From the IMG/VR virus record IMGVR_UViG_3300030430_005376, positions 32,001 through 96,000 of that record: a DNA stretch of 64,000 bases. The stretch is one strand, 5' to 3'. Under the pieces are notes generated by a model, which saw nothing but the letters and a program-made list of their open reading frames with translations, was not told where the DNA came from and ran no database searches. Positions 28-12,930 of this stretch are shown here, in pieces. The stretch's first letter is position 1. The number at the start of each line of letters is the position of its first letter. This DNA is from a virus. Made by a program: the position numbers and the translations under genes.

Positions 28-948
28 TCAAGATTCGTTAATTATGTGACCAGATCCTATTTTCAACTCAATCTTACACATCTTAATTTCACTCAACTCA
101 GATAATCTTGAAAAAACATCTCTTGTTAGAGACTTAATAAAATTCATGTCGTATTTAAGTGTCTCTCTTGTCTCTGAAGACCTTAGATAGAACTCACCAT
201 ATAGAAACTCATTTCTAAGCATAAAGTGGCACAGAGATAAACAGGAGTCATCTGTGTATATAAACCTTCGTGACTCATGTGTTTCTTCACGTCCGTATTC
301 ATTAGCACCTGCTAGTTCGTCATCAATCTTCTTTAAGAGTTTTCTTCTGATCTTATCGTAATATACTTTTTCTTTTTCATAAGACAACATTTCTTCTGAA
401 ACATCTTCAAAAGTTCCATTATCATAATGGGTTATAGACATTCCAATCCTTTCTAAAGATTCTTCAGATGCAGCGGAACCCATAAACATGCGAGCGAAAC
501 TATGAAAAGATCTTCCTTCAAAATGTGATCGAAGGTTATGTACTATGTAATTAACCATGTTTTCATCAATTTCTTTTCTTAGAGTTATAACATTAGGATA
601 GTTCTCAAACTCATCAGCTGCTTCTGAGAATAGATCATAAACTTTTTTAAGTGAAACTAGATTTTGAATCTCATCTCCGCGCTTTTGAAACCTGTCAGCG
701 ATCACACTCCATTCTGGCAGTAGCAAAATCATCACGTTGTTAAAGTTTGACAAATCTCTTTTTAAAGCTTCTACATGAAAATAATCATTCCTACCGTAAA
801 GCCGAGCGTAAACAATCATCGAAAGAGATGATCTATCCTGAATGTTCCAACAGTAATTAGATGCCTCATGAATCTTCTGGTACAAGGTGGTCTTGCCACT
901 CAAATCAGGACCTTCAAGAGTAATTTGATTTATTGGTGTTTTTCTCAT
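28..948 (-). CDS. dNMP (thymidylate-type) kinase fused to a minimal thymidylate synthase-fold domain (putative dCMP-modifying enzyme)
   Basis: N-terminal P-loop [10 protein letters not shown] and DR motif (IQDRSS). C-terminal TS motifs in order: SRR(226-228), SC(236), RSSE(256-259), D267, GSGHI(298-302). Confidence 0.75.
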
Positions 949-2036
949 TTAACAAAGACTCCGTTGAATTGCTGTGATACCCTGACAAAGGTAGTACACT
1001 TGCTAAGCTGCTTAAGGGACGGCGCGCCCACATATGTGCATGTAGATCTTAAACCTCCCAATAAGTCTTTTACAGTGTCGTCAACACTTCCCTTGAAGGG
1101 CACTTCAACAGTTCTTCCTTCAGAAGCACGATATTCAGCAACACCACCGGAGTGTTTATTCATGGCTGTGTCTGAAGACATGCCGTAAAAAGTAACATAT
1201 TTTCTCTCATCAAAAATCGGCCCGCCTGTTTCACCATCATCGTAAACTTCACGCTCAGACGTCTTAAATCTTTTTATGGTGATTTCTCCTCCTCCTTCAA
1301 TGTGCCCCGCAAACATGCCTCCCATCATTACAAAGTCTGCGCCAGCTGCAAAAGCCTTAGCAACATCTCCAGGACAGGTACACCCTCCGTCGGCGATAAT
1401 ATGACCTCCTAAACCGTGAGCTGCATCAGCACATTCTATGATGGCTGACAGTTGGGGATAACCCACGCCTGTCTTTATACGTGTAGTGCACACACTCCCA
1501 GGTCCAATACCTACTTTCACAATGTCAGCGCCTGCAAGAATTAACTCTTGCGTCATATCAGCGGTTACAACGTTTCCTGCGATAAGAGTAATGTCTGGAT
1601 TTTTTTCTTTAAAACGCCTCACGAAGTCAACAAAATATTCTGAGTAGCCATTTGCTACATCAATGCAAACAAACTCTATGTTTGCCTGAAAGTTGTCAAT
1701 AATGTTTTGAGTTTTTTCTAGATCTGAGAGAGAAATTCCGGTGGACATTATTGTAGTCGATGTTTGCCAGTCTGCTTGGTTTGCTTTATAATCGTCATGA
1801 TTATATGACTTTACTAAGCAAGTCATAAGACCGTGTTCGTTTAAAGCTCTTGACATCTCAAATGTACCTACGCCGTCCATGTTGGCAGCAATAACCGGAA
1901 TACCTGTCCAGCTTCTACCGTTTCTAAAAGTATACTGCCTTTTGAGAACTACATCTTTTCTGCTTCTTGCTTCTGATCGCTTAGGGCGTATCAGTACATC
2001 TTTAAAATCTAGCTTTAAGTCTTCTTCAATCCTCAT
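945..2036 (-). CDS. guaC: GMP reductase
   Basis: [36 protein letters not shown] (catalytic Cys), [31 protein letters not shown]. Confidence 0.95.
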
Positions 2037-2391
2037 ATTTCCTCACTATGAAATTTTTTTCTATGTATTCGTGTGTCATTTCGCTTAAACCGTGCCCTGT
2101 CAAAATAGTGTAAGATCGGTTCCACTTCTTTTTTCCACCTTTTTTATCGATAACAACACCGCAAAAGTTTACCTTGTCTCCAACATACATCTCTTTTAAG
2201 TTGATCAGAACAAAAGTTAAGACGTTTCCTGGTTCAAATAAGGTGTGATCAGCATCGCTGCGAAAACTAGCTTTAATCCTGGCAAGTCTTTTTTCTGATT
2301 TTTTGATTCTCTTTTTCCTCTTTTTATTTGACAAGTGGGCGTACTTTCGCAGCGCTCGTTGAAGCTCCCCAGTTGGGGTCGTTTGATGCAT
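2026..2391 (-). CDS. hypothetical protein (true start may be TTG near 2334)
   Basis: Fills the gap between dnaE and guaC on the coding strand; the ORF-track start overlaps dnaE by 68 nt. Confidence 0.5.
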
Positions 2392-5300
2392 TAGTTAACC
2401 ATATTGTGTAGGGTTGCATAGAGTTAGGAATCTGACCCCAGACACGAAGCCAACCTGTATTGCTTTCCTCATCTGTTATCTTAACACGATAGAAAGTCTT
2501 TTTATTCTTTGTGGTCTTTTTAATTGTCTCAACAACACAGAACCAAGCAATACCTTTTTCACCTGGATCCATCTGCAGAACTGACTTGACATTAGCACTT
2601 CGAATCTTTGTCATAAGTTCGTCAGGAAATGCTAAGTCGTCACGAGTTGCAGAGCACATGTCCTGATACATTTGAAGCTTTTCAATACGTGTCCAGTCTT
2701 CAACATCTTGCGTTTCTTCAATAAGTTTCGGAAGGATAGGTTCTGCATCTTTCTTCTTTGCTTGTCGAAGTGTCATGCCAAACTTACTCTTTTTAAGCGT
2801 GTTGTAGTTCTCGATGATAATCTCGTGAAGCTGCCTGTGATTGTTAATCTCACCTTTCCACACTTCTTCGAGAACGTCGAGTGCTTCCACAGAACATAGC
2901 GCAGCGAAACCAGTCTTATTGAGTTTAGAGTGGTACCACTTTCCTTCTTCATCGTAAAGCATTTGATTTAGCGATGTGTAGGGGCGATTCTCAAAGATTT
3001 CTTTAACAGCATTTTTGCCAAGACCCTTGATAGATGTCAAAGGAGGAATGAAAGAGTTTTTATTTTCAGACCATGCCCAGTTGATACCTGACTCATTGAC
3101 GTCAGGAGTACTGACTGAATAACCCATCGCTTTAATCTCAGAGATTGCTTTTGACAAGTTCTTAGGGTTACCATTTTCAGATTCAAGAATCGTACCAAGC
3201 CAATCAGTCTCGTAGTATGTGTGAAGCCAGGCAGCATAGTAGGAACCGATTGCATAAGCAACAGCATGCGACTTGTTGAAGCCGTAAACTGAGAAGAACT
3301 CAATTCTTTCCCAAAGCTCTTGAGAAACATGTTCAGGCACGCCATTTAGATCTTTAGCACCTTTGACAAACTTAAGACGAGCAGCCTCACGCTCATCACC
3401 TTTCTTGCCCATCGTGTCAAGAGACTTCTTGACCAGCGTCTTGCGAAGCTTATCAGATTCCGCCGGTGTGAAACCGCCTAGTTTCTGTGCCAAAAGCATG
3501 AACTGCTCTTGGAAAGTAACGTGACCGAATGTTGGCCCAAGAATCTCTTTGATAATTGGGTGAGCATACTCGATCTGTTCGGCCCGGGCTTTATCCTTGA
3601 CATATTTCTTGTGAACGTTAGCTCGAAGAGGACCGGGTCGATAGATTGCCGTCAGTGCAGCGAGTTCGATGATAGATGTCGGCTTAGCATCTTCGCAGAA
3701 ACGTCGAGCGCCTTCAGCTGTGAACTGAAAGACACCTACTTTACGGCGCTGATGATAAACGTGCTCCCAGACCTTTGGATCATCTTGTTCCACGAATCGG
3801 CAGTTGAGATGCTCGTCAAACCAGTCACGAATCTCAATGAAGGTGGGTTCTTTACCTGTTTCTCTAGTGATAATTCGACGAATGCAGTTTTCAACATCCT
3901 TAAGAAGCGTAAGACCCAAGAAGTCAAACTTAATGAAACCATTATCTTCCAAGTTTCGGAAGTTCATGCCTTCTGTCCAAGGAGTCTGTAGTTCGCCTCG
4001 AACACCGATAATAGGCATTGTTTTCGCCAAGTCTTCAGCCGGGCCTATGATAACGCCACCGGCGTGACGACCAATTGATCTATTTTGCATGAAGAGCGCT
4101 TCAATGTGATCTTTGACCTTTGGATACTTTTCCATAAAGTCGCGATACTTTTTGGAGTATTCCATACAGTCTTCATGCTTGAGAACAAACACAGACTTCT
4201 CAGTGTTTTCGTCCCTCGCTTGTGCCATAACTTCATCTTGCAGCGGACCAGTCATCTTATTGACCTCAGCAAAGTCAATCTGGTAGAACTTAGCAATGTC
4301 CTTGACAAGAGACTTAAGCTTTAGCGTGTTAAAGTTGGAAACAGGAATAACTGATTCAAAACCATAAAGTTCTCTTGCGGCATTAATAAGGGCGTCGCGA
4401 TCACCTGCATCAGAGTCAATGTCAGGCCAGGATGTTCTGTGACGCCCAAGGAATCGCTCCCAAAGGAGATCGTACTTGAGCGGATCGACCTGGGTTATTC
4501 CAAGAAGGTAGTTGACTAGAGAACCACCGCCCGAACCTCGAGCAGCTCCAAAGAGAGTATGATCTGCAGCTTTGTGGAAGACTTCGTTCATGACCAAGAA
4601 GTAGTTTTCAAATCCTAAGAACTTGATATCAGCAAGTTCCATCTTGGCACGTTCAACGTACTCTTCTTTTTCATGCATTCCTTCTTTGACTAGTGCTTGC
4701 TTAACTTTCTGCGCAAGCTGTTGAAAAGCAGTCTGGTCTGGTTTATTAAAATCAGGCAACTTAACACTGGTATCAATCCAACAATCAGTACATTTATCCC
4801 AAGCGATATCATGAGTTCTCTCAATCGAATCCTTAACGGCAATTTCGTATCCCTCATAAGTGTCTTTATATTCATCGTAGTGCCTCGTAAATTCATCCCA
4901 CATCTGTTGCGCATTCTTAGGGTAGAGCTCGCACTTTAGATCTTCAAACTCTGGCAAGGGAGAAGGATCATTACCCATCCAACCTAGCTTTTTGTAAAGC
5001 TCGCGTGCTTCCCATTTGTTAGGATTGTAGTAGTGTGAGTCAGGAGTAGCGACAAGATTGAGACCTGTCATTTCTGCGTGCCGCAGTAAGTGATGGTTTA
5101 CAAGATGTTGTTGTTTAAGCCTGTTAAATTGAATCTCAAGATAAAAGTTTTCTTCACCAACAGCATCAACAAACTTATCAGATAGCTGCATAAGCTCTGC
5201 TTGAATCTCACTGTCTGACTTCTTAAGCGCATTTCCGCGCATGATTCTATTAGAGTAAATACCACCTAAACAAGCGGTAGAGACATTAAGGCCTTTGCCA

Positions 5301-5839
5301 TGTTGTTTGAGAAGATCAAAGTCAATGCGGGGATAACGATAGAATCCCTCTGTGTACGCACGTTTGATCAGAGTGAACAAATTGCCTAAACCTTCACGGT
5401 CCTGTGCAGTGATCACCAGATGATAACGTCGTTTCCATTCATCCTTGTTGACATCTACTGTCTTAGTCTCGTCTTCGTTCTCGATAACATGCCCAGCATC
5501 AGCATCTTCCTTAAGCGCCTTTTGCTTTGCAAGTGCTCGATCAATCTTTGATTGCTCATAATCTTCTTTCCAGCCTGCAAGCGAGGGAACAAAATAGAAC
5601 TCGCAACCATAAATCTGTCGATACTTTCGGCCGCTCTTCTGAATCTTGGTTGCATGCTTGTGAGCGTGTGCCAAACCGCTACCGTTTCCGTGATCAGTCA
5701 GACCCCAAGCGTCCATGCCATTTTCAAGAACAAAGTCAATGTGATCCTTAGGGTAACCTAGTCCGTCGAAGACCGAGAAACCTGTGTGACCGTGTAATCC
5801 TACAAAGCGAGTTGGCGCTTTCATGTCAAAAATGTTCAT
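2324..5839 (-). CDS. dnaE: DNA polymerase III alpha subunit (family C) with PHP domain
   Basis: PHP ligands HGH, TDHG, GCE, YHL, TAC, PDSHY; RGSGGGSLVNYLLGIT; PDIDSD; KFDFLGL; YGFNKSHA; C-terminal OB fold. Start set at ATG 5839 (AGGAG upstream) rather than the track's 5863. Confidence 0.95.
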   Translation of the reverse strand: MNIFDMKAPTRFVGLHGHTGFSVFDGLGYPKDHIDFVLENGMDAWGLTDHGNGSGLAHAHKHATKIQKSGRKYRQIYGCEFYFVPSLAGWKEDYEQSKIDRALAKQKALKEDADAGHVIENEDETKTVDVNKDEWKRRYHLVITAQDREGLGNLFTLIKRAYTEGFYRYPRIDFDLLKQHGKGLNVSTACLGGIYSNRIMRGNALKKSDSEIQAELMQLSDKFVDAVGEENFYLEIQFNRLKQQHLVNHHLLRHAEMTGLNLVATPDSHYYNPNKWEARELYKKLGWMGNDPSPLPEFEDLKCELYPKNAQQMWDEFTRHYDEYKDTYEGYEIAVKDSIERTHDIAWDKCTDCWIDTSVKLPDFNKPDQTAFQQLAQKVKQALVKEGMHEKEEYVERAKMELADIKFLGFENYFLVMNEVFHKAADHTLFGAARGSGGGSLVNYLLGITQVDPLKYDLLWERFLGRHRTSWPDIDSDAGDRDALINAARELYGFESVIPVSNFNTLKLKSLVKDIAKFYQIDFAEVNKMTGPLQDEVMAQARDENTEKSVFVLKHEDCMEYSKKYRDFMEKYPKVKDHIEALFMQNRSIGRHAGGVIIGPAEDLAKTMPIIGVRGELQTPWTEGMNFRNLEDNGFIKFDFLGLTLLKDVENCIRRIITRETGKEPTFIEIRDWFDEHLNCRFVEQDDPKVWEHVYHQRRKVGVFQFTAEGARRFCEDAKPTSIIELAALTAIYRPGPLRANVHKKYVKDKARAEQIEYAHPIIKEILGPTFGHVTFQEQFMLLAQKLGGFTPAESDKLRKTLVKKSLDTMGKKGDEREAARLKFVKGAKDLNGVPEHVSQELWERIEFFSVYGFNKSHAVAYAIGSYYAAWLHTYYETDWLGTILESENGNPKNLSKAISEIKAMGYSVSTPDVNESGINWAWSENKNSFIPPLTSIKGLGKNAVKEIFENRPYTSLNQMLYDEEGKWYHSKLNKTGFAALCSVEALDVLEEVWKGEINNHRQLHEIIIENYNTLKKSKFGMTLRQAKKKDAEPILPKLIEETQDVEDWTRIEKLQMYQDMCSATRDDLAFPDELMTKIRSANVKSVLQMDPGEKGIAWFCVVETIKKTTKNKKTFYRVKITDEESNTGWLRVWGQIPNSMQPYTIWLTNASNDPNWGASTSAAKVRPLVK

Positions 5840-5857
5840 TATACTCCTAAAAATAAA

Positions 5858-5883
5858 CCTCACACTTATTATAAAATGTGAGG
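5858..5883 (-). terminator. intrinsic terminator hairpin CCTCACA/TGTGAGG followed by TTTATTTTT; loop contains the dnaE -10 box
   Basis: 7-bp inverted repeat plus U-tract downstream of 5914..6738. Confidence 0.7.
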
Positions 5884-5896
5884 CTTAGGTTTACAC
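5868..5896 (-). promoter_or_regulatory. sigma70-type promoter GTGTAA-N17-TATAAT for dnaE
   Basis: Perfect TATAAT with a 17-nt spacer; -35 resembles the TTGTAA/TTGTAC boxes at recA and ssb. Confidence 0.7.
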
Positions 5897-5913
5897 TCTT
5901 TTAAATTTATTAC

Positions 5914-6738
5914 TTAAGCTTGGGAAGATAATGCATCTTTTAGTTTTTTTGCTTCTTCTTCACTCAAAGCACCTTTTTTGACGTTTGCAATCAGCTGATT
6001 CTTCATCTTTTCGGCAGCTTCTGTTTTTATAGTCTTTCTTCTCTTCAGTATCGCAGTTGTAAAATCCTTGTCAATTAACGGCCCTTTACGTTTTTTGCCG
6101 TTTAAGTCTGTGTACTCTTCAGAAATAAGTTCAAGATACAACCTTTTCCCTTCTTTAGTATCCATCACGGCAGCAAGATAGTCTACCATTTCATAGCGTG
6201 ACCATGATTTTACTACAAGAGTTTTTCCAGGATTTCTTGCTATGTCAGTTAGCTTCAACGGAGTATCTTTACCGCCGGTTCGGCGGAGTGACCTCAGCTT
6301 CTTTAACACACCCTCAACAGTATCTAACTGCTCAATGCTTTTTTGCAACATATTTGGGAGAAAGTTAAAAGCCCCCCACACAGCAGCTACAAGCAGTAGC
6401 GGCCCAGCAAAGCTCGCGGCGGTTTTCGCCGCCTTGAAAGCACTTTCGCTTCCCTTCTGCAACAATGTCTTTTTCAATAGTGTTGACGCTGTGCCTTCTA
6501 CGCCGCCTATTTCAGCTTGTACCCCTCTGCCGTAAGTGCCTCCAGAAGATGCTCCAGCCGCCGCGCCGCCGGACCCACCCATAGCAATTGCAAGTAATTT
6601 AGATCCCTGAAAAGATCCCAGAAGAGCTAATAATTTAGCTGTCTCTGTGGCCCCGGAAACTGTTCCAGCTCTCTTTACTTCGGCTTCACCAAGCATTTCA
6701 ACGACTAAGTGCTTTAGTTCTCTTCTCGTAATTTTCAT
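5914..6738 (-). CDS. putative internal virion protein with MKITRRE leader and Gly/Ala-rich hydrophobic segments
   Basis: Leader shared with ORFs at 61781-62851; hydrophobic stretch FAGPLLLVAAVWGAFNFL. Confidence 0.55.
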   Translation of the reverse strand: MKITRRELKHLVVEMLGEAEVKRAGTVSGATETAKLLALLGSFQGSKLLAIAMGGSGGAAAGASSGGTYGRGVQAEIGGVEGTASTLLKKTLLQKGSESAFKAAKTAASFAGPLLLVAAVWGAFNFLPNMLQKSIEQLDTVEGVLKKLRSLRRTGGKDTPLKLTDIARNPGKTLVVKSWSRYEMVDYLAAVMDTKEGKRLYLELISEEYTDLNGKKRKGPLIDKDFTTAILKRRKTIKTEAAEKMKNQLIANVKKGALSEEEAKKLKDALSSQA

Positions 6739-6743
6739 ATAGA

Positions 6744-6750
6744 TAAGTAT
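6744..6750 (-). promoter_or_regulatory. candidate late promoter ATACTTA
   Basis: Same ATANTTA motif occurs upstream of several structural genes; here 5 nt from the ATG with no SD sequence. Confidence 0.45.
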
Positions 6751-6759
6751 TGACTATTC

Positions 6760-7755
6760 TTAGTAAAAGTCAGTCAAGTTTACACCTTTCTCTTTTGCCT
6801 CGTCAAGGTGAACAAGCGGATCATATCCTTCGCTTTCACGAATCTCTCTAATCGTTCTACGTATACCTTCTTCAAGTGAAATCTTGGGCTGCCAGCCTGA
6901 CATTGCTCTAAACTTTCTTGAAGACAATCGGTGGTTTCCTAAATAGTCAGTTTCAGGATGCCAGGTCAAAACATCTGAAGTCTTGCCTGTTTCTTCAAGA
7001 AGTATACTTGAGAGCAATTCCATGATCTCGCCTGTGTTCATAGGCGTCTCTGCAGCCACGTTCCAGTCGTCATTCCACAGACCTTGCTTAATGGCTGTTA
7101 AAACTGCATCGCAGTAATCATCAACATGCATGTAGTCTTTGATCTTCTCTTTATCTAAGAACATGTCAATTTCTCCACGATTGTTCAAACTTCCATATAC
7201 AGTCTTAGCTATAAGAGAGTTCATGTCACCATCACCGCCGTAAGCAAAGAGAGGTCGAACAATCATCCATCTGTTACCTGTTTGACTTTTGACAATGTCT
7301 TCGGCACATAGTTTCTGACAGCCGTAAAGAGTTGAAGGTCCTTTTGTTGAAACCTCTGTTATGTCTATTTCTTGATATTTAGCAACATCATAAATAACTG
7401 TGGTTCCCATGTAACAAACAGGTATTCCTAAACCTTTTGCTGCTCTGCAAATGTTATAAGTGCCGGCGACATTAGTCAATGTTGCTTCACTTGCGTTTAG
7501 TGCAACAACATCAGTTCCGACAACGGCTGCATTGTGAATCACAACATTGACTTTGTTTCGATAGAAAAACTCTTTCCAAGCCATAATATCATTCTGATGA
7601 ACACAAAGCTCTCCTGGCTTATGGAAAATTAATTCAACATCGTTTGGTGTGTCGAATTTTGAATCTGAAGAAACGTGTTTAAAGCCAAACTCTTGAAGCT
7701 TTCTTACAAGATTTCTACCGATGAAGCCTTTTTCACCTGTTACAAATACATTCAT
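6760..7755 (-). CDS. NAD-dependent NDP-sugar epimerase/dehydratase (extended SDR)
   Basis: TGEKGFIG (GxxGxxG), HNAA, catalytic YGCQK (YxxxK), RPLFAYG, KDYMHVDD. Confidence 0.9.
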   Translation of the reverse strand: MNVFVTGEKGFIGRNLVRKLQEFGFKHVSSDSKFDTPNDVELIFHKPGELCVHQNDIMAWKEFFYRNKVNVVIHNAAVVGTDVVALNASEATLTNVAGTYNICRAAKGLGIPVCYMGTTVIYDVAKYQEIDITEVSTKGPSTLYGCQKLCAEDIVKSQTGNRWMIVRPLFAYGGDGDMNSLIAKTVYGSLNNRGEIDMFLDKEKIKDYMHVDDYCDAVLTAIKQGLWNDDWNVAAETPMNTGEIMELLSSILLEETGKTSDVLTWHPETDYLGNHRLSSRKFRAMSGWQPKISLEEGIRRTIREIRESEGYDPLVHLDEAKEKGVNLTDFY

Positions 7756-7757
7756 TT

Positions 7758-8210
7758 TTATTCAATCTTTCCCTGATAGCGTCTGGGCAAAACTGTGTTA
7801 CCTTCGTCAATACAGTACTGAAGATATTCTTCAAGATCACTCAGCGAAGTACATACAGCTTCACCGCTAGCAGCTAGCATTAGATTGAACTGCGCGCCTT
7901 CTGGTAAGCCTGCACAAAAATAAATAATAGGCTTTTCTAGCTTATGAAAGTATCCTGCTTCAAAGATACTGCCCATGTCTTTGTTTCTAGTATTGCAAAG
8001 CATCCAGTCGCATTCTTCCATTCCACGAATGTTGCCATTGAAAACCTGATCTTGGAAGTTTACTGTTGAGTCTGGTGTGCAGAGATTTTCATCTTTTGGT
8101 GAAAAATAATCTAACCCTAAGTCGTCTAAAGTTGCTTTGATATTCTCTAGTTCTTCAAGCCACTCAGGTGAAAACCACCCACTTGCAATATAACATTTGT
8201 TCATGCTCAT
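7758..8210 (-). CDS. nucleoside 2-deoxyribosyltransferase / dNMP N-glycosidase family protein
   Basis: YIASGWF, YFSP, DMGSIFEAGY (catalytic Glu), KPII. Confidence 0.85.
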   Translation of the reverse strand: MSMNKCYIASGWFSPEWLEELENIKATLDDLGLDYFSPKDENLCTPDSTVNFQDQVFNGNIRGMEECDWMLCNTRNKDMGSIFEAGYFHKLEKPIIYFCAGLPEGAQFNLMLAASGEAVCTSLSDLEEYLQYCIDEGNTVLPRRYQGKIE

Positions 8211-9193
8211 TATCTTCTCTCCATAAATGTTTCGTAGTTATCTTTCATTTCATTAATTTCTTTCATTGTACTTTCCCAAATATCTTCAAAGACTGTTAAC
8301 GTGCCTGGATTGTTTGTACCATTAATCTCTTCCCGGCGAGCTTGGTAAATTGTGTCATCAGGGTGAAACTCAAAGATATCGTTCTTAGGTTCAGGCCAAT
8401 ACAAGTTTGTACCTCTTGAAGTAAATCCGTCACCTACCTTTACTCTAAAGGTCTTGACATAGTGCATATCAGGCTTATCGAAGTTGATAGCAGTTGAAGC
8501 TTCTGGAAGAACTCGAATAAGCTCTCTTGCCATGTAAGCTGCAAGAATATTATCAGCGGCTGGCTGAATCTGTCGGTCTTGTCGTTGACGAATAAAACCC
8601 AGCAGGTCTTTAAGATTCATGCGCATAAGATAAAAAGAAGTCATGCACTTAGGCAGAATCATACGAGCATCCATCATAGATACGTCTTTAGAATCAGTCA
8701 TGTCTGCGTAAAGTTGCTTTGAGTCCCTTACAATATCCATGTATCGACGTAAAAATTCTGGAGAGTTTTCTACTGCTTCAGGAATAACTGCGTCGTCATC
8801 ACGAAGATCCCGGTCGCCTGTACATTGCGCTGCGAAAGAACCTGCTCTGTGTCGAATAATGTGAGTAACTTCTTGGAAAGAAAGGCCACTCAACTTAAAA
8901 GTAAAACCTAAACATTCCATTGGTGTTGGAAGGGCTCTAAAGTTTAAGACATCTTCAAGATTCTGAGAAAGATCTTGCATAGAAGTAGTTGAAGGATTAG
9001 TTTCATCGTGATGATCTGCCCAAGTTGCTTTAACGTACTGCCACGCAACATTTAGAGCTTGTGATCTAGTTGGGTGATCAACAAGTTCGACGCCTAAAGC
9101 ACGAAGATTGTTAGAAAAAGTTGTCGATGGAGCTTGATCAAACTTTAGTTCCATCGGCAAAGTGACAGGTGTGAGTGACTTGTTAAGTGGCAT
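8210..9193 (-). CDS. thyX: divergent flavin-dependent thymidylate synthase (ThyX-like)
   Basis: RHRAGSFAAQCTGDR (canonical RHRxxSxxxxSxRY), DARMILP, RQRQDRQIQ. Confidence 0.75.
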   Translation of the reverse strand: MPLNKSLTPVTLPMELKFDQAPSTTFSNNLRALGVELVDHPTRSQALNVAWQYVKATWADHHDETNPSTTSMQDLSQNLEDVLNFRALPTPMECLGFTFKLSGLSFQEVTHIIRHRAGSFAAQCTGDRDLRDDDAVIPEAVENSPEFLRRYMDIVRDSKQLYADMTDSKDVSMMDARMILPKCMTSFYLMRMNLKDLLGFIRQRQDRQIQPAADNILAAYMARELIRVLPEASTAINFDKPDMHYVKTFRVKVGDGFTSRGTNLYWPEPKNDIFEFHPDDTIYQARREEINGTNNPGTLTVFEDIWESTMKEINEMKDNYETFMERR

Positions 9194-9430
9194 TTATGCT
9201 TCCTTCCTTTTGTTTATGTTCTTATTATTTTCTTTTTTATTTGTTTTTACAGGCGTACCTGTAATTACTTTAAATTTAATTCCTGCCGGGCCGCATCGTC
9301 TAATCTTTACGTGATCGAAGCCATCTTCTAGCAAACTAACTCTAAAACTGTCGGCGCTAGTGTAGTCTAAAAATGTTCTCACTTCTTTCCACGTGAATTT
9401 TCTTATGCTTGTTTTTGTTTCCTTACTCAA
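9194..9430 (-). CDS. hypothetical protein
   Basis: In-operon ORF abutting both neighbours. Confidence 0.65.
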   Translation of the reverse strand: MSKETKTSIRKFTWKEVRTFLDYTSADSFRVSLLEDGFDHVKIRRCGPAGIKFKVITGTPVKTNKKENNKNINKRKEA

Positions 9431-9431
9431 T

Positions 9432-10334
9432 TTATACTCCTATTATTTCTTTTAATTCACTATAAAAATCAATGTTTTTGTTTTCAGAAATATGCTTGTT
9501 GTAACTTTTGATAGGTACTTTGACTTGTATTCCGTGATCAGCATACTCGATGGCATGCTTCGGTGAGTCATCAACTGCAAACTTAATTGCATTTGTGTCA
9601 TAATACTCTGAGTTCATGCACCACCTAAGTTTTTCGGGTGAAAAGTCAACCCTATCAAAAGGTAATCCAGTTGTTGTTAACCAGCTGTATGTATCATAAA
9701 ATATCTTAAGATTATTTTTAGGGCGTGCTGTCAAAAGCTGAATCCAATATCCTCTTGACCTAAGATCTTCTAGAAATGTACGAGCGTCTTCTACGATAGG
9801 CAGACACCTAAAATGCCTCTCTTGAACAAAAGATTCAAAAACTTTTTCAGGGTTAATATTTCCTGATGCTTTCAATATATCTTCGACAAAGAAGTACTGT
9901 TCACTTTCAACGTCAGCTTCAATGTCATAAACTCTGCTTAAAAACTCTGCGAAAGGAGTTCTAAATTCTGCAAGAACGTCGTCAATGTCAACTATTGCTA
10001 CTGGCTGTCCTGACCACTTTCTTGTATTGATCTTATGATCAAGCTCTAAATAAGTGTCCTTTAAACTAAATGCTAACGACACATCTTCAGGCGCTATTTC
10101 CCACAAGTTTAGCATTGACATAACATAGCGAAGAACGTCAATTGATGAATAGACTAAGTCATCCTCATCAGGCACGCCACTATCAACACGCATTTTTTCA
10201 ATCATCTTATTAATTGAATTATAAGCGTTCAAAGCTAAATCTTTACTAACTTCTCTTTTTTGACTAGTTTCAAGCTTTCCAAACTTTGCCTCGTTGTAGT
10301 TAGCTTGAAACCTCATCATTTCTATGAAATTCAC
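9432..10334 (-). CDS. degenerate all-alpha NTP-pyrophosphatase-like domain fused to a HAD 5'(3')-deoxyribonucleotidase
   Basis: C-terminal HAD motifs VDIDDV, LTARP, K, AVDDSP; N-terminal helical domain resembles the adjacent pyrophosphatase. Confidence 0.7.
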   Translation of the reverse strand: MNFIEMMRFQANYNEAKFGKLETSQKREVSKDLALNAYNSINKMIEKMRVDSGVPDEDDLVYSSIDVLRYVMSMLNLWEIAPEDVSLAFSLKDTYLELDHKINTRKWSGQPVAIVDIDDVLAEFRTPFAEFLSRVYDIEADVESEQYFFVEDILKASGNINPEKVFESFVQERHFRCLPIVEDARTFLEDLRSRGYWIQLLTARPKNNLKIFYDTYSWLTTTGLPFDRVDFSPEKLRWCMNSEYYDTNAIKFAVDDSPKHAIEYADHGIQVKVPIKSYNKHISENKNIDFYSELKEIIGV

Positions 10335-10711
10335 TAATAACCTTCCTTCAACCTATTCATTATGATCTCATGCTTCCTAACATAAGATTCATAAAGATCG
10401 TCCTCATTAAAACCTGATGCGATGAGAAGAGAGAAAAAATAATTTAATGCATCAACTATTTCTTCTAAGAACTCTTCTCTATCAGGCCCTTCGTTAAACT
10501 CAGTCATTCTGTGTGGCTTCCAATTTTTCAAGTGCTGAAGCGCTTCAAACATTTCTTCAACACCTCTCAAGGCCAAATCTCTACAGAATTGTTGAGAATT
10601 TTTCTTACTTAGATTAAGTGGCAAATCTGGATAAGATCCAGGTCGAGCTTCTCTCATTTCAGAGATAAACTCATTTCTAAGTTTAAACATTTTTTGCAGG
10701 TTGCAATTCAT
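10334..10711 (-). CDS. all-alpha dNTP pyrophosphatase (dUTPase_2 / dCTPase / MazG-like)
   Basis: EEMFEAL, NWKPH, EEIVDALNY (EExxE ... ExxD metal motifs). Confidence 0.8.
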   Translation of the reverse strand: MNCNLQKMFKLRNEFISEMREARPGSYPDLPLNLSKKNSQQFCRDLALRGVEEMFEALQHLKNWKPHRMTEFNEGPDREEFLEEIVDALNYFFSLLIASGFNEDDLYESYVRKHEIIMNRLKEGY

Positions 10712-10716
10712 GTGTT

Positions 10717-10935
10717 CTAGCTCTCTGCAGACTCACTCTGCATTCTTACAGCTTCTTGAATCATTCGTTGAATGTTATCGTCACTCTGAGACTCGTAATC
10801 TGGATCTAAGAATAGCTGACCTTCGGTTTCTACCAAAGTCATCATTCTCATGTGGTCAACCACATCTGTTCCTGTTAACATTGCAAGCTGCACTAACTGT
10901 GCGATGTGAGCAATAGTTGCGTCGCTAAGTTTCAT
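10717..10935 (-). CDS. hypothetical protein
   Basis: SD GGAG upstream; in operon. Confidence 0.7.
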   Translation of the reverse strand: MKLSDATIAHIAQLVQLAMLTGTDVVDHMRMMTLVETEGQLFLDPDYESQSDDNIQRMIQEAVRMQSESAES

Positions 10936-10944
10936 TGTTTTCTC

Positions 10945-11775
10945 CTATTTTTGAATTTCTGGTACCCAATGTGTTGTTCTGCCATCAGGAGTTTTAGTTT
11001 TAACTACATTATTATTATAAGGGTCAAGCTTTTGATTGTACACTAAAAACTTGCTTGAATACGTACCTTTTGACCCATCAGCTCCGTAGAAGCTTTTGAT
11101 GGTAGCTCCTCCGTTTTGAAAAGAAGTTCTAATGACTGATTGAATATTATCTCTCAGTGAAATTACTTCTTCGTCTGTGAGACTGTTAACAGTTCTGAGG
11201 GGTGAAACTTTTGAAAGCCAGAGGACTTCAGCCTTGATATAATTACCTACCCCTGCGACAGTCTTTTGATTCATTAATGCCTCGCAAATGGTCTTTTCAC
11301 CTCTTTTGTTTTTCTTAAAAAGTCGATTCTTAAATACATCTATGTGTATATCATGTGTAAGGGGATCAGGACCTAACTGCAGTAGCTTTTCTTGCGTTTC
11401 TTCAAAAGTCATGGCAAACTTTAGAGTACCAAAGTTTCTAGTATCTGTGTACCAAATTGAAGAGCCGTCTTCAAAATCAAACCTTACACGAGAATGTTTT
11501 TTCTCACTGTAAGACCAGTATCCTGACATTCCTAATGTGTTCCACACAAAACACTGTATTTCAGATCCACCTGGACCGAAACCGCCATAAATAAATTTAC
11601 CTTTTGATCCCCAGCCAGCGCAGTTTATGGGAAGCATAGATTTAAAGCAGTCTAATCCTTGAGGCGGCTTTTTAGTGTATCTTCCTGACAAAACCTCAAC
11701 ATTAGTTAAAATTTTATCGCTCATAAAACTGTTAATTGACTGTGCAGTAGCTGCGCACTCAGGTCCTTCTGGCAT
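10945..11775 (-). CDS. Fpg/Nei-family DNA glycosylase, Nei-like with zincless finger
   Basis: N-terminal MPEGPE (catalytic Pro; start at second ATG), LGMSG, DTRNFG, H2TH LMNQKTVAGVGNYIKAEVLW, C-terminal DPYNNNV...GRTTHWVPEIQ with no Cys. Confidence 0.9.
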   Translation of the reverse strand: MPEGPECAATAQSINSFMSDKILTNVEVLSGRYTKKPPQGLDCFKSMLPINCAGWGSKGKFIYGGFGPGGSEIQCFVWNTLGMSGYWSYSEKKHSRVRFDFEDGSSIWYTDTRNFGTLKFAMTFEETQEKLLQLGPDPLTHDIHIDVFKNRLFKKNKRGEKTICEALMNQKTVAGVGNYIKAEVLWLSKVSPLRTVNSLTDEEVISLRDNIQSVIRTSFQNGGATIKSFYGADGSKGTYSSKFLVYNQKLDPYNNNVVKTKTPDGRTTHWVPEIQK

Positions 11776-12178
11776 CTTCAAACTCCTTTAACCAGTTGTG
11801 ATAGTTTACTAAAGCTCCGTCTTTTGGTTCTACTTTTTTCCATTCCGGAGTACAAAAAATCTTGTAAGCATCTGATCCGTACTTCCCAATTCCGTAGAGC
11901 TTTGTTGGATCATCTTGCCACTCTTTTGATAGGTAATCTTTTGACATTCTGACAAGTGCTTTTGCTCGGCGCTTAGACAGGCCGAGAGGTTGTATGACTG
12001 CAGCTACTTCAGATTCGCTAGCACATGCTAAGTCTACTGGTTGGGGCCACAAGTTTAAAACTTGTCTAAAATAAGGTTCCGCTGACACTCTTTTTGTCAA
12101 GTTGCAGAATATACAGCAAACAAAAATCTTCCATGGGTCATAGTTTATTTCTTCTTGCAAAAGCCCGTAAGGAGACAT
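11759..12178 (-). CDS. MBD4-like HhH DNA glycosylase (G:T/G:U mismatch type)
   Basis: LLQEEINYDPWKIFVCCIFCNLT, LGL..RRA, LYGIGKYGSDAYKIF, YHNWL match the MBD4 glycosylase domain pattern. Confidence 0.85.
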   Translation of the reverse strand: MSPYGLLQEEINYDPWKIFVCCIFCNLTKRVSAEPYFRQVLNLWPQPVDLACASESEVAAVIQPLGLSKRRAKALVRMSKDYLSKEWQDDPTKLYGIGKYGSDAYKIFCTPEWKKVEPKDGALVNYHNWLKEFEDARRT

Positions 12179-12195: not shown

Positions 12196-12930
12196 TTATT
12201 TTACTCTTTTCCTTATGTGATTTACAGGTCTTGTGCCTAATTTTCTCTTAATTCTTTTTACTCTTTCAAATGTTTCTTTTATATCTTCGTCTTTAAAAAC
12301 ATAACCCAGAGAAGTCAAGTAATTCTTTAGCACAACATGTTTACTTTCTTCCGGTACAGTCTGCCATTGATATGCAATGCTATTTTTTCTACTACTAAGC
12401 ATTTCATTCATTTTTTTATTTTTTGGCTTGATTAGCTCAGAAACTTTATTTTCAGGAAGCTCAATATCTAGTTCAAAGCCCACAAAAAGTAAATTTTCAT
12501 AAGAGCCTTCAGTAAAACTATCTACGGCTAGATTGTAGTATTTATTGAATTTTTTAACGAGCAGGGGTACGTTAAAATTTTGAGTCTTGTCTGGGTGTGT
12601 GGAAAACACTATCTTTCTATAGAGATGCTTTGCCCAAGCCTCAGGTTTTAAATTTTTTTCTGAAGTGCTTACTGTGTCTTGTTGCTCGTCAAAGTTAGTA
12701 ACAGGACTATCATCACTCATCTTTTTTTCTATGTCTTTGTCACCAAAAAATTGTTCGTTGAAGTTTTCTCGCTGACCATCAACTTCTTCAGATAAGTGCT
12801 CTCTAAAATTTGTGACGTGCGCAAGTAAATCTGCTTGACCTTTTTGGAATAAACTTTCGACAATTTCAAGCTCTTCAAAATAAAGCTTATACTGAAGTAT
12901 TTCAATCTTTTCTTCAGGCTTGATTGCCAT
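12196..12930 (-). CDS. J-domain-containing protein
   Basis: KHLYRKIVFSTHPDK (HPD motif). Confidence 0.65.
   Translation of the reverse strand: MAIKPEEKIEILQYKLYFEELEIVESLFQKGQADLLAHVTNFREHLSEEVDGQRENFNEQFFGDKDIEKKMSDDSPVTNFDEQQDTVSTSEKNLKPEAWAKHLYRKIVFSTHPDKTQNFNVPLLVKKFNKYYNLAVDSFTEGSYENLLFVGFELDIELPENKVSELIKPKNKKMNEMLSSRKNSIAYQWQTVPEESKHVVLKNYLTSLGYVFKDEDIKETFERVKRIKRKLGTRPVNHIRKRVK

Follow-up and report, generated by a model that had tools for sequence, protein, structure and literature searches.

The stretch of DNA analysed here (hereafter the window, 64,000 nucleotides) corresponds to bases 32001-96000 of the 137,660-base IMG/VR record IMGVR_UViG_3300030430_005376, whose completeness is estimated by CheckV at ~53%. 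Its positions 28-12178 hold a tightly packed block of genes, all on the minus strand and with a G+C content of 35-45% in a genome of 39% G+C, around KinTS, a protein in which a kinase is fused to a minimal thymidylate synthase (TS) fold. The source of this DNA is an uncultured marine giant-phage clade, and the block is a conserved early-gene set around the gene of a DnaE-type polymerase. An original prediction, made from the letters alone, had proposed for this block a cytosine-modification pathway packaged with its own deamination-repair machinery; all nine genes that it named are present in their places, together with a GMP reductase gene that it overlooked. The region gave no match by megablast, and KinTS none by tblastn in 50,697 isolate phage records, while the DnaE protein is at most ~30% identical to that of any isolate phage. 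Comparisons were made with uncultured relatives: an alignment of the window KinTS with 66 full-length IMG/VR homologs (67 in total), 67 viral loci for gene order, and 43 related records for gene presence. The genes of the block and of its flanks are as follows.

28-948, minus strand: KinTS, a YorR/phrog_761-type kinase (residues ~1-145) followed by a minimal TS fold (~146-306), from Pfam and an AlphaFold2 (AF2) model
945-2036, minus strand: GMP reductase (GuaC), 363 aa, above the NCBIfam cut-off, between DnaE and KinTS
2026-2391, minus strand: basic 121-aa protein, poorly conserved (2 loci)
2324-5863, minus strand: DnaE-type replicative polymerase with PHP, alpha, finger and HhH domains, adjoining KinTS in 67 of 67 loci
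5914-6738, minus strand: 274-aa protein with the MKITRRELK leader common to the head-cargo proteins of this phage
6760-7755, minus strand: SDR331, an extended-SDR NDP-sugar epimerase/dehydratase, at the same position in 31 of 67 loci
7758-8210, minus strand: nucleoside 2-deoxyribosyltransferase (NDT)-family protein with the catalytic Glu motif (Nuc_deoxyrib_tr, E 7e-14)
8210-9193, minus strand: divergent ThyX-family flavoprotein with a 95-aa C-terminal extension (Pfam Thy1, 70 bits)
9194-9430, minus strand: basic 78-aa protein
9432-10334, minus strand: degenerate MazG/gp56-like domain fused to a HAD 5'(3')-deoxyribonucleotidase of NT5C type
10334-10711, minus strand: 125-aa all-alpha NTP pyrophosphatase of the T4 gp56 family
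10717-10935, minus strand: u72, a conserved acidic protein of 72 aa, always between the pyrophosphatase and Nei
10945-11775, minus strand: Nei/NEIL1-like DNA glycosylase-lyase (three Pfam domains)
11759-12178, minus strand: MBD4-type HhH-GPD mismatch glycosylase domain (E 1.7e-33, full length)
12196-12930: u244, 244 aa, adjoining the MBD4-like gene, with a J-domain-like HPD motif (YRKIVFSTHPDK)
96714-97142 of the genome, ~700 bases beyond the window end: canonical trimeric dUTPase (PF00692, 70 bits)

A kinase fused to a minimal thymidylate synthase fold

The two halves of KinTS are assigned by different kinds of evidence. In the kinase half, residues 22-129 match the Pfam family Thymidylate_kin and residues 7-155 superpose on YorR (2axp; VIA Z 13.2), which a profile search also retrieves, whereas PF00303, the Pfam profile of TS, found no match in KinTS, in the whole record or in four relatives, so that membership of the second half in the TS family is structural and motif-level only. 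The AF2 model (pLDDT 91.8, pTM 0.88) has as its best Foldseek match the dCMP hydroxylase of HY126 (9iqu, E 1.9e-6), followed by many thymidylate synthases, the T4 dCMP hydroxymethylase and MilA, with these TS-family chains being matched at a probability of 1.00 and E-values between 1.9e-6 and 7e-5. By VIA, the C-terminal half reaches Z 11.1 with 9iqc and Z 10.4 with ThyA, the TS family as a whole spanning Z 9.0-11.1 over 140-154 residues at an rmsd of 3.3-3.5. Moreover, a profile of the C-terminal domain matched, among the TS-fold chains of the PDB, T4 dCMP hydroxymethylase (E 0.0012) and HY126 AfhB (E 0.098), as well as the D179N mutants 6l18 (E 0.022, 4 bits lower than the wild type) and 6a9a (E 0.26), and retrieved no dUMP-specific ThyA up to E 10.

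The conserved residues of KinTS comprise SRR226-228, Cys236, Arg256-Ser257, Glu259, Asp267 and Ser299-x-His301. Asp267 and Arg227 are invariant in the 67 homologs, which share 28-83% identity, while 66 of them retain Cys236, Arg256, Ser257, Glu193, Ser299 and His301, and 65 retain Arg228. The sole exception to the 66 is the protein of one locus (L067, record G033, KinTS at 10001-10870), which loses all of those residues except Asp267 and Arg227, with N, KQ, Y and NRN standing for the Cys, the Arg-Ser, the Ser-x-His and the Arg pair, and is by these substitutions probably a dead copy. The resulting register, C-x19-RS-x-[N/D/E]-x7-D, has the same spacing in RB69 gp48, the TS homolog of phage Xp12 and gp42, with which it can be aligned without a gap, every residue matching its counterpart, and equals that of C146, R166, S167, D169 and N177 of E. 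coli ThyA, positions listed in previous work (PMC13326640). In this register, Asp267 lies 11 residues past Arg256 at the position of ThyA Asn177, and aligns with Asp179 of the T4 dCMP hydroxymethylase. Judging from these residues, the TS fold of KinTS carries a conserved, cytosine-type catalytic set, in line with the cytosine-type Asp that the original prediction had noted in the kinase/TS-fold fusion.

KinTS is further predicted to form a TS-type homodimer (ipSAE 0.77 against 0.00 for the best control, pLDDT at least 90, contacts agreeing 100% between runs), the ipSAE mark used being one that 20 of 30 solved homomers and 1 of 23 monomers attain. TS-family enzymes use an Arg-Arg pair for the phosphate in the site of the partner subunit, and in the model Arg227/228 touch Arg256/Ser257 of the partner. 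The prediction may be a recall of solved TS dimers, and so shows likeness rather than binding. When clustered at 50% identity, the KinTS domain family has 412 representatives, of which almost every one is the fused form of ~300 aa, and a word-based search for stand-alone short TS-fold forms gave fragments only.

Nucleotide-pool enzymes of the block

The 125-aa pyrophosphatase aligns with RB69 gp56 over 121 columns (hhalign 94.7%, E 6e-8), and both proteins match phrog_173. Its metal motifs, EExxE...EExxD, are intact and invariant, and the gene is present in 37 of the 43 related records. Since the genome encodes a separate canonical dUTPase, a second pyrophosphatase directed purely at dUTP would be redundant, and the enzyme needs another substrate. 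This suggests a putative activity on dCTP and speaks to a dUTP-specific pyrophosphatase, one of the outcomes that the original prediction had named as contrary to it, although the presence of the dUTPase is no proof of dCTP specificity. In the neighbouring fusion, the N-terminal domain is a paralog of this pyrophosphatase (hhalign 97.3%), but the window copy looks inactive from its residues, since the acidic metal motif is lost and five consecutive residues found in relatives are missing. On the other hand, the motifs of the HAD nucleotidase half (DxDD, T, K and DD) are intact.

The NDT-family protein was originally read as a DNPH1-type enzyme that would destroy deaminated nucleotides. Its profile relatives in the PDB are only NDT (6evs, E 1.7e-7) and PTD (1s2d), true nucleoside transferases, with no match to DNPH1, and its N-terminus, CYIASGWF, is closer in appearance to that of NDT than to the DNPH1 motif, GSIRGG. 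A DNPH1-type enzyme thus gains no support, and a nucleoside salvage loop formed by the NDT-like protein, the NT5C-type nucleotidase and the thymidine kinase (TK) encoded beyond KinTS may fit these genes at least as well as the destruction of deaminated nucleotides. As for the ThyX-like protein, its divergence is confirmed by a TIGR02170 score of 44.5 bits, below the cut-off of 87.9. It keeps the RHR motif and differs at the positions of Arg74, Gln75, Glu86, Ser88 and Arg90 of the T. maritima enzyme, several of which are changes in the dUMP site. It is among the best-conserved proteins of the block, with 70-78% identity where KinTS shows 33-39%. GuaC scores 530.7 bits with NF003470 (cut-off 397) and 524.9 with TIGR01305 (cut-off 492), and is found in 13 of the 67 related loci; together with a dCMP deaminase, it would move G and C nucleotides toward A and T precursors.

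DNA glycosylases

Both glycosylases proposed for the block were found to belong to the families named. Residues 2-132 of the MBD4-like protein align with 6-135 of 6vjw, a match that holds for human and mouse MBD4, and the catalytic Asp is kept, with GKYGSD aligned to GKYGND. The gene occurs in 20 of the 43 KinTS records. In one of the related records (G002, 100521-100928) it has one in-frame TGA, which may reflect a pseudogene, a sequencing error or recoding; the record that holds the probably dead KinTS copy (G033, 84% complete) is also without an MBD4-like gene, a single case. The Nei-like protein reads MPEGPE from its real start and has no CxxC zinc finger. Its best relative in the PDB is the mimivirus Nei1 (MvNei1, E 2.4e-45), far ahead of bacterial Fpg (~1e-20) and E. 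coli Nei (5e-6), and it scores below the NCBIfam cut-offs for Fpg and Nei.

Deamination of 5-methylcytosine yields thymine opposite G, the classic substrate of MBD4. In this regard, the distribution of the MBD4-like gene among isolate phages is restricted: it was found in 16 of the ~50,000 records searched, 13 of which are the Xp12 group (phages of Xanthomonas, Stenotrophomonas and Janthinobacterium), the other three being a cyanophage and an archaeal virus represented twice. In Xp12 itself (MT664984, L141), a phage available in culture, the gene at 8914-9396, annotated as a hypothetical protein, encodes an MBD4-type glycosylase directly upstream of a HAD hydrolase and the dCMP-methylating TS homolog. 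The DNA of Xp12 contains 100% 5-methylcytosine by liquid chromatography-mass spectrometry (PMC7653180). This link of MBD4-like genes to phages with C5-substituted cytosine suggests that such phages need to repair a faster or mutagenic deamination of the modified base in their own DNA. The literature searches turned up no paper noting the Xp12 gene, nor one making this point on repair in modified-cytosine phages.

Gene order, flanking genes and sugar genes

The order in the clade runs MBD4-like, Nei, u72, pyrophosphatase, pyrophosphatase-like/HAD, ThyX-like, NDT, (SDR331) and DnaE, and continues after DnaE with (GuaC), KinTS, (SDR347, cupin), TK, DHH phosphoesterase, dCMP deaminase and SOD, genes in brackets being variable. 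As the same order is found in at least 67 related contigs, the combination is not due to chance. The co-occurrence anticipated by the original prediction is thus real but not all-or-none, since some contigs lack KinTS and not all records carry the MBD4-like gene. In the record itself, the block runs on outside the window: directly downstream of KinTS lie SDR347, a WbgU/WbpP/TviC-like 4-epimerase of UDP-hexose/UDP-HexNAc, and a small cupin, and past the cupin follow the TK, the DHH phosphoesterase, the dCMP deaminase (~3 kb from KinTS) and an SOD-like protein.

SDR347 follows KinTS in 44 of the 67 loci. Two distant DnaE phages without KinTS (one of 369 kb with terminal repeats, the other of 309 kb) carry instead an ortholog of T4 gene 42 (51% identity to T4 gene 42; phrog_160; RSND...D...SLHVY), the start of which overlaps the stop of an SDR347 epimerase ortholog (51% identity) by 4 nt. 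Altogether, this overlap and the adjacency of KinTS to SDR347 mean that a TS fold of the dCMP-modifying type is paired with the same epimerase in two lineages, each of which has its own version of the TS-fold enzyme.

Several other observations concern the block in relatives. In two loci without KinTS, the slot between DnaE and the epimerase (L117:13507-14295 and L128:6352-7140) is occupied by a conserved protein of 262 aa that matches neither Pfam nor PHROG families, followed by a small zinc-ribbon protein. One relative has a GIY-YIG domain fused to an N-deoxyribosyltransferase domain (L117:7849-8991), the DnaE matches of several others (L115, L124, L135 and L138) are 0.5-1.5 kb longer than the DnaE of the window, and a DnaE reading frame at L128:4070-6355 begins with an intein-like ...VLTHNS junction, features which suggest that inteins or homing endonucleases may have entered the block of these relatives.

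With regard to the remaining genes of the record, the 274-aa protein, inserted amid the early nucleotide block, has no homolog in the related loci, and with its head-cargo leader it is not part of the nucleotide pathway. u244 has no Pfam or PHROG match. Considered as possible glycosyltransferases, the conserved proteins u244, with its J-domain-like motif, and u237, acidic and of low complexity, were discarded as not resembling such enzymes. Bases 1-32000 of the genome encode a eukaryote-type phosphomannomutase (L002:10328-11176), a Cpn60 chaperonin (L001:3752-5350), a sigma-70 factor (L001:2267-3001), a FEN-type 5'-3' exonuclease, an amidase-type lysin, an SOD-like protein and a DHH phosphoesterase. 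Palindromes and restriction sites are only weakly avoided across the 137 kb of the record, to a degree that carries no information (observed/expected 0.58 for GATATC; CCTAGG 0 against 6.4 expected).

A proposed pathway and its alternatives

From folds, families, conserved residues, gene order and co-occurrence, and from four independent links to cytosine-modifying phages (the phrog_761 kinase, the gp56-family pyrophosphatase, the MBD4-like gene and the epimerase pairing), it seems on balance probable that the block is a variant of the pre-replicative cytosine replacement of T4 and Xp12, centred on KinTS and equipped with its own base-excision repair; the substrates, the product and the presence of a modified base in virion DNA are deductions from that evidence. 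In such a pathway, the gp56-family pyrophosphatase would convert dCTP into dCMP, leaving dUTP to the separate dUTPase, and Cys236 of the dimeric TS-fold domain would attack C6 of dCMP for the addition of a substituent at C5. The kinase domain of KinTS would then phosphorylate the modified product or, alternatively, make dCMP from deoxycytidine, and DnaE would incorporate the modified nucleotide, with dTMP being supplied by the dCMP deaminase, the ThyX-like enzyme and TK. Once modified cytosines in the DNA deaminate, the MBD4-like enzyme would remove the resulting 5-substituted uracil or thymine opposite G, and the NEIL1-like Nei would remove oxidised pyrimidines. Any sugar donor needed for later glycosylation may come from the UDP-sugar 4-epimerase of WbgU/WbpP type that is encoded directly beyond the window. 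The pathway originally envisaged is in this way retained in part, for the TS fold, the family of the pyrophosphatase, the gene co-occurrence and the repair arm, which has a precedent in the MBD4-like gene of Xp12, but not for a DNPH1-based clean-up of the nucleotide pool.

Several candidates come into question for the putative modified base. The residue at ThyA position 169 has been proposed as diagnostic, with Asn in 5-hydroxylases and Asp in folate enzymes (PMC13326640). In the KinTS family, the equivalent residue is N in 37, D in 22 and E in 8 members, the window copy having Glu259, so that the family is committed to neither signature, that of hydroxymethylases or that of 5-hydroxylases. 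Furthermore, ~30 residues of the pterin/flavin-site segment are missing in KinTS relative to the gp42-like proteins, which leaves the co-substrate not readable. Given both features, the product is not readable from the sequence either, and 5-hydroxy, 5-hydroxymethyl and 5-methyl groups are all open as candidates. The NEIL1/MvNei1 branch excises oxidised pyrimidines including 5-hydroxycytosine, and a Nei of this type would clash with an unprotected 5-hydroxycytosine DNA. As to protection by sugars, neither GT1 or GT2 glycosyltransferases nor sugar nucleotidyltransferases (PF00534, PF00535 and PF00483) were found in the ~53%-complete record, a search that did not extend to the T4-specific families, and the glycosyltransferase sought beyond the window did not appear; GT1 genes are present in two of four large relatives, ~100 kb from the block. 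With no glycosyltransferase found, a sugar-bearing base is a conjecture suggested by the epimerase linkage alone. The integrity of the block is also at issue. Four related contigs have other gene(s) in the KinTS slot and yet retain the pyrophosphatase, NDT and TK; the dCMP deaminase is still present in three of these contigs, and the HAD fusion together with a ThyX-family gene in two, so the block is not one obligate pathway. The ThyX-family genes of these relatives are more degenerate, with RGR for RHR, and provide no clean contrast. Moreover, the MBD4-like gene is absent from 23 of the 43 KinTS records, two of them 77% and 84% complete, and phages whose DNA is ordinary commonly encode dCMP deaminase, ThyX, TK, MazG-like enzymes and HAD nucleotidases. 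Apart from the comparison of ThyX-family genes, the points from the variable residue at position 169 onwards weigh against the cytosine-replacement pathway.

According to a distinctly less probable, though serious, explanation, the DNA is canonical and the block combines ordinary dNTP supply and salvage with general base-excision repair, the TS-like domain being a nucleotide-binding, regulatory or dimerisation module. Host nucleic acid would be degraded, GMP reductase, dCMP deaminase, ThyX and TK would shift G and C to A and T for a genome of 39% G+C, and the pyrophosphatases would serve as house-cleaning enzymes. Such a scheme accounts for the fact that every partner except the TS fold is common in phages with normal DNA, for the push of both GuaC and the dCMP deaminase toward A/T pools in a region of 35-45% G+C, for the coherent salvage loop of HAD nucleotidase, true-NDT-like transferase and TK, for the retention of most other block genes in relatives without KinTS, and for the lack of a glycosyltransferase in the searches above. 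It has greater difficulty with KinTS itself, as a non-catalytic domain is hard to reconcile with a TS catalytic set and a cytosine-selecting Asp kept down to 28% identity, and with the gp42 ortholog that takes the equivalent slot beside the same epimerase in distant relatives. Neither the occurrence of the MBD4-like gene in isolates, which outside three records is confined to the 5-methylcytosine phages of the Xp12 group, nor a second pyrophosphatase in need of another substrate beside the canonical dUTPase is expected from it.

An active KinTS is also compatible with a product that is an intermediate of the pool (dCMP being converted via 5-methyl-dCMP and the deaminase into dTMP/dTTP, a bypass that has been proposed for deaminases of the Xp12 type) or with partial substitution only, a possibility that we regard as improbable. 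The deaminase within ~3 kb of KinTS speaks in its favour, as does the precedent of 5-methylcytosine-selective deaminases that make dTTP from 5-methyl-dCTP (bioRxiv 10.1101/2024.12.05.627091), and the divergent ThyX-like protein may be an inefficient thymidylate synthase. But the conserved ThyX-like enzyme and TK already give a route to thymidylate, the precedent phages replace all of their cytosine, and the MBD4-like repair enzyme suggests that the modified base sits in the DNA. Finally, it is hardly credible that uracil or thymine is modified instead, with KinTS hydroxymethylating dUMP and phosphorylating the product, and dTTP being excluded by the pyrophosphatase and the HAD fusion as in SPO1/SP8-type phages: the pyrophosphatase and NT5C-type pair does resemble the dTTPase and dTMP nucleotidase of hydroxymethyluracil phages, and the dCMP deaminase would feed dUMP, but the equivalent of ThyA Asn177 is Asp in 67 of 67 homologs, the domain profile matches dCMP enzymes only, and ThyX and TK make dTMP, contradicting the exclusion of thymine.

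Should KinTS make a modified dCMP, no smaller pyrimidine-modifying enzyme with a TS fold would be known, nor an earlier one fused to its kinase, which is of relevance to enzymology and to making modified nucleotides enzymatically. In that case, an abundant clade of uncultured marine phages would also have non-canonical DNA, which affects its sequencing, restriction and counting.

Comparison with known systems

In T4, cytosine replacement relies on the gp56 dCTPase, the gp42 dCMP hydroxymethylase, the gp1 dNMP kinase, the cd dCMP deaminase, the products of td and tk, and glucosyltransferases. The block described here resembles this system in its gp56-family pyrophosphatase, in the dCMP-type Asp of its TS fold, and in that kinase, dCMP deaminase, thymidylate synthase and TK functions cluster by the polymerase gene. 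On the other hand, the TS fold of KinTS has only ~160 residues, goes undetected by PF00303 and is fused to a YorR-type rather than a gp1-like kinase. The thymidylate synthase is here of the ThyX type, the polymerase is a DnaE and the dUTPase is separate. No glycosyltransferase was found in the record, and MBD4-like and Nei glycosylases are added.

A second point of comparison is offered by the flavin-dependent 5-hydroxy-dCMP synthase clusters of RB69, DLP3, RL38J1 and HY126 (AfhB; PDB 9iqu and 9iqc), which provide the best structural match of the TS fold. A YorR-like kinase lies beside the synthase in DLP3, RB69 (gp45) and RL38J1 (PMC13326640), and the only PHROG of the KinTS kinase domain, phrog_761, is also home to RB69 gp45. 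Since kinase and TS homolog are neighbours in RB69 and fused in KinTS, the association is of the Rosetta-stone type. Further likenesses are the adjacent polymerase gene, the sugar-nucleotide genes nearby and the Asn at ThyA-169 in 37 of the 67 KinTS family members. Unlike these synthases, KinTS joins kinase and TS fold in one polypeptide, its TS fold is ~60-80 residues shorter, the window copy has Glu at ThyA-169, and its alignment to RB69 gp48 is weak (hhalign probability 2.7%). The clusters differ as well in that no genes or transferases for arabinose or other glycosylation were found here, and that a NEIL1-like Nei is encoded. In metaviromes, the pairing of a dCMP deaminase and a TS homolog, seen here as well, is characteristic of modified-cytosine contigs (70% against 6.1%; bioRxiv 10.1101/2024.12.05.627091). 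The MetaGPA paper makes no mention of kinases, glycosylases or epimerases.

Xp12 offers a parallel for the repair arm, its MBD4-like glycosylase being 32% identical over 136 residues to that of the window. Near its polymerase gene, Xp12 has a row of MBD4-like glycosylase, HAD hydrolase, dCMP-type TS homolog (C-x19-RSSD-x7-D), dCMP deaminase and DHFR, and the local motif LRSS[DE]...L.YD is common to its TS and KinTS; the Xp12 hydrolase, considered as a homolog of the HAD fusion, proved not homologous. Xp12 differs in that its TS homolog is of the full-length folate type (289 aa) and comes with DHFR, its polymerase is a Pol I and its genome measures 64 kb, and it lacks Nei, NDT, ThyX and a fused kinase. 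Compared with mammalian MBD4, the phage protein has no methyl-CpG-binding domain but keeps the catalytic Asp, and compared with both MBD4 and NEIL1, the two phage-encoded glycosylases, Nei with its N-terminal Pro-Glu, are embedded in a nucleotide-metabolism block. A broader and more tentative view, rather doubtful at present, would be that a widespread clade of marine giant phages combines a minimal kinase-fused TS enzyme, possibly with a non-folate co-substrate and an undescribed product, with a dedicated MBD4/NEIL1 pair tuned to what that base yields on deamination and oxidation, following a 'modify and maintain' logic shared with Xp12-type phages.

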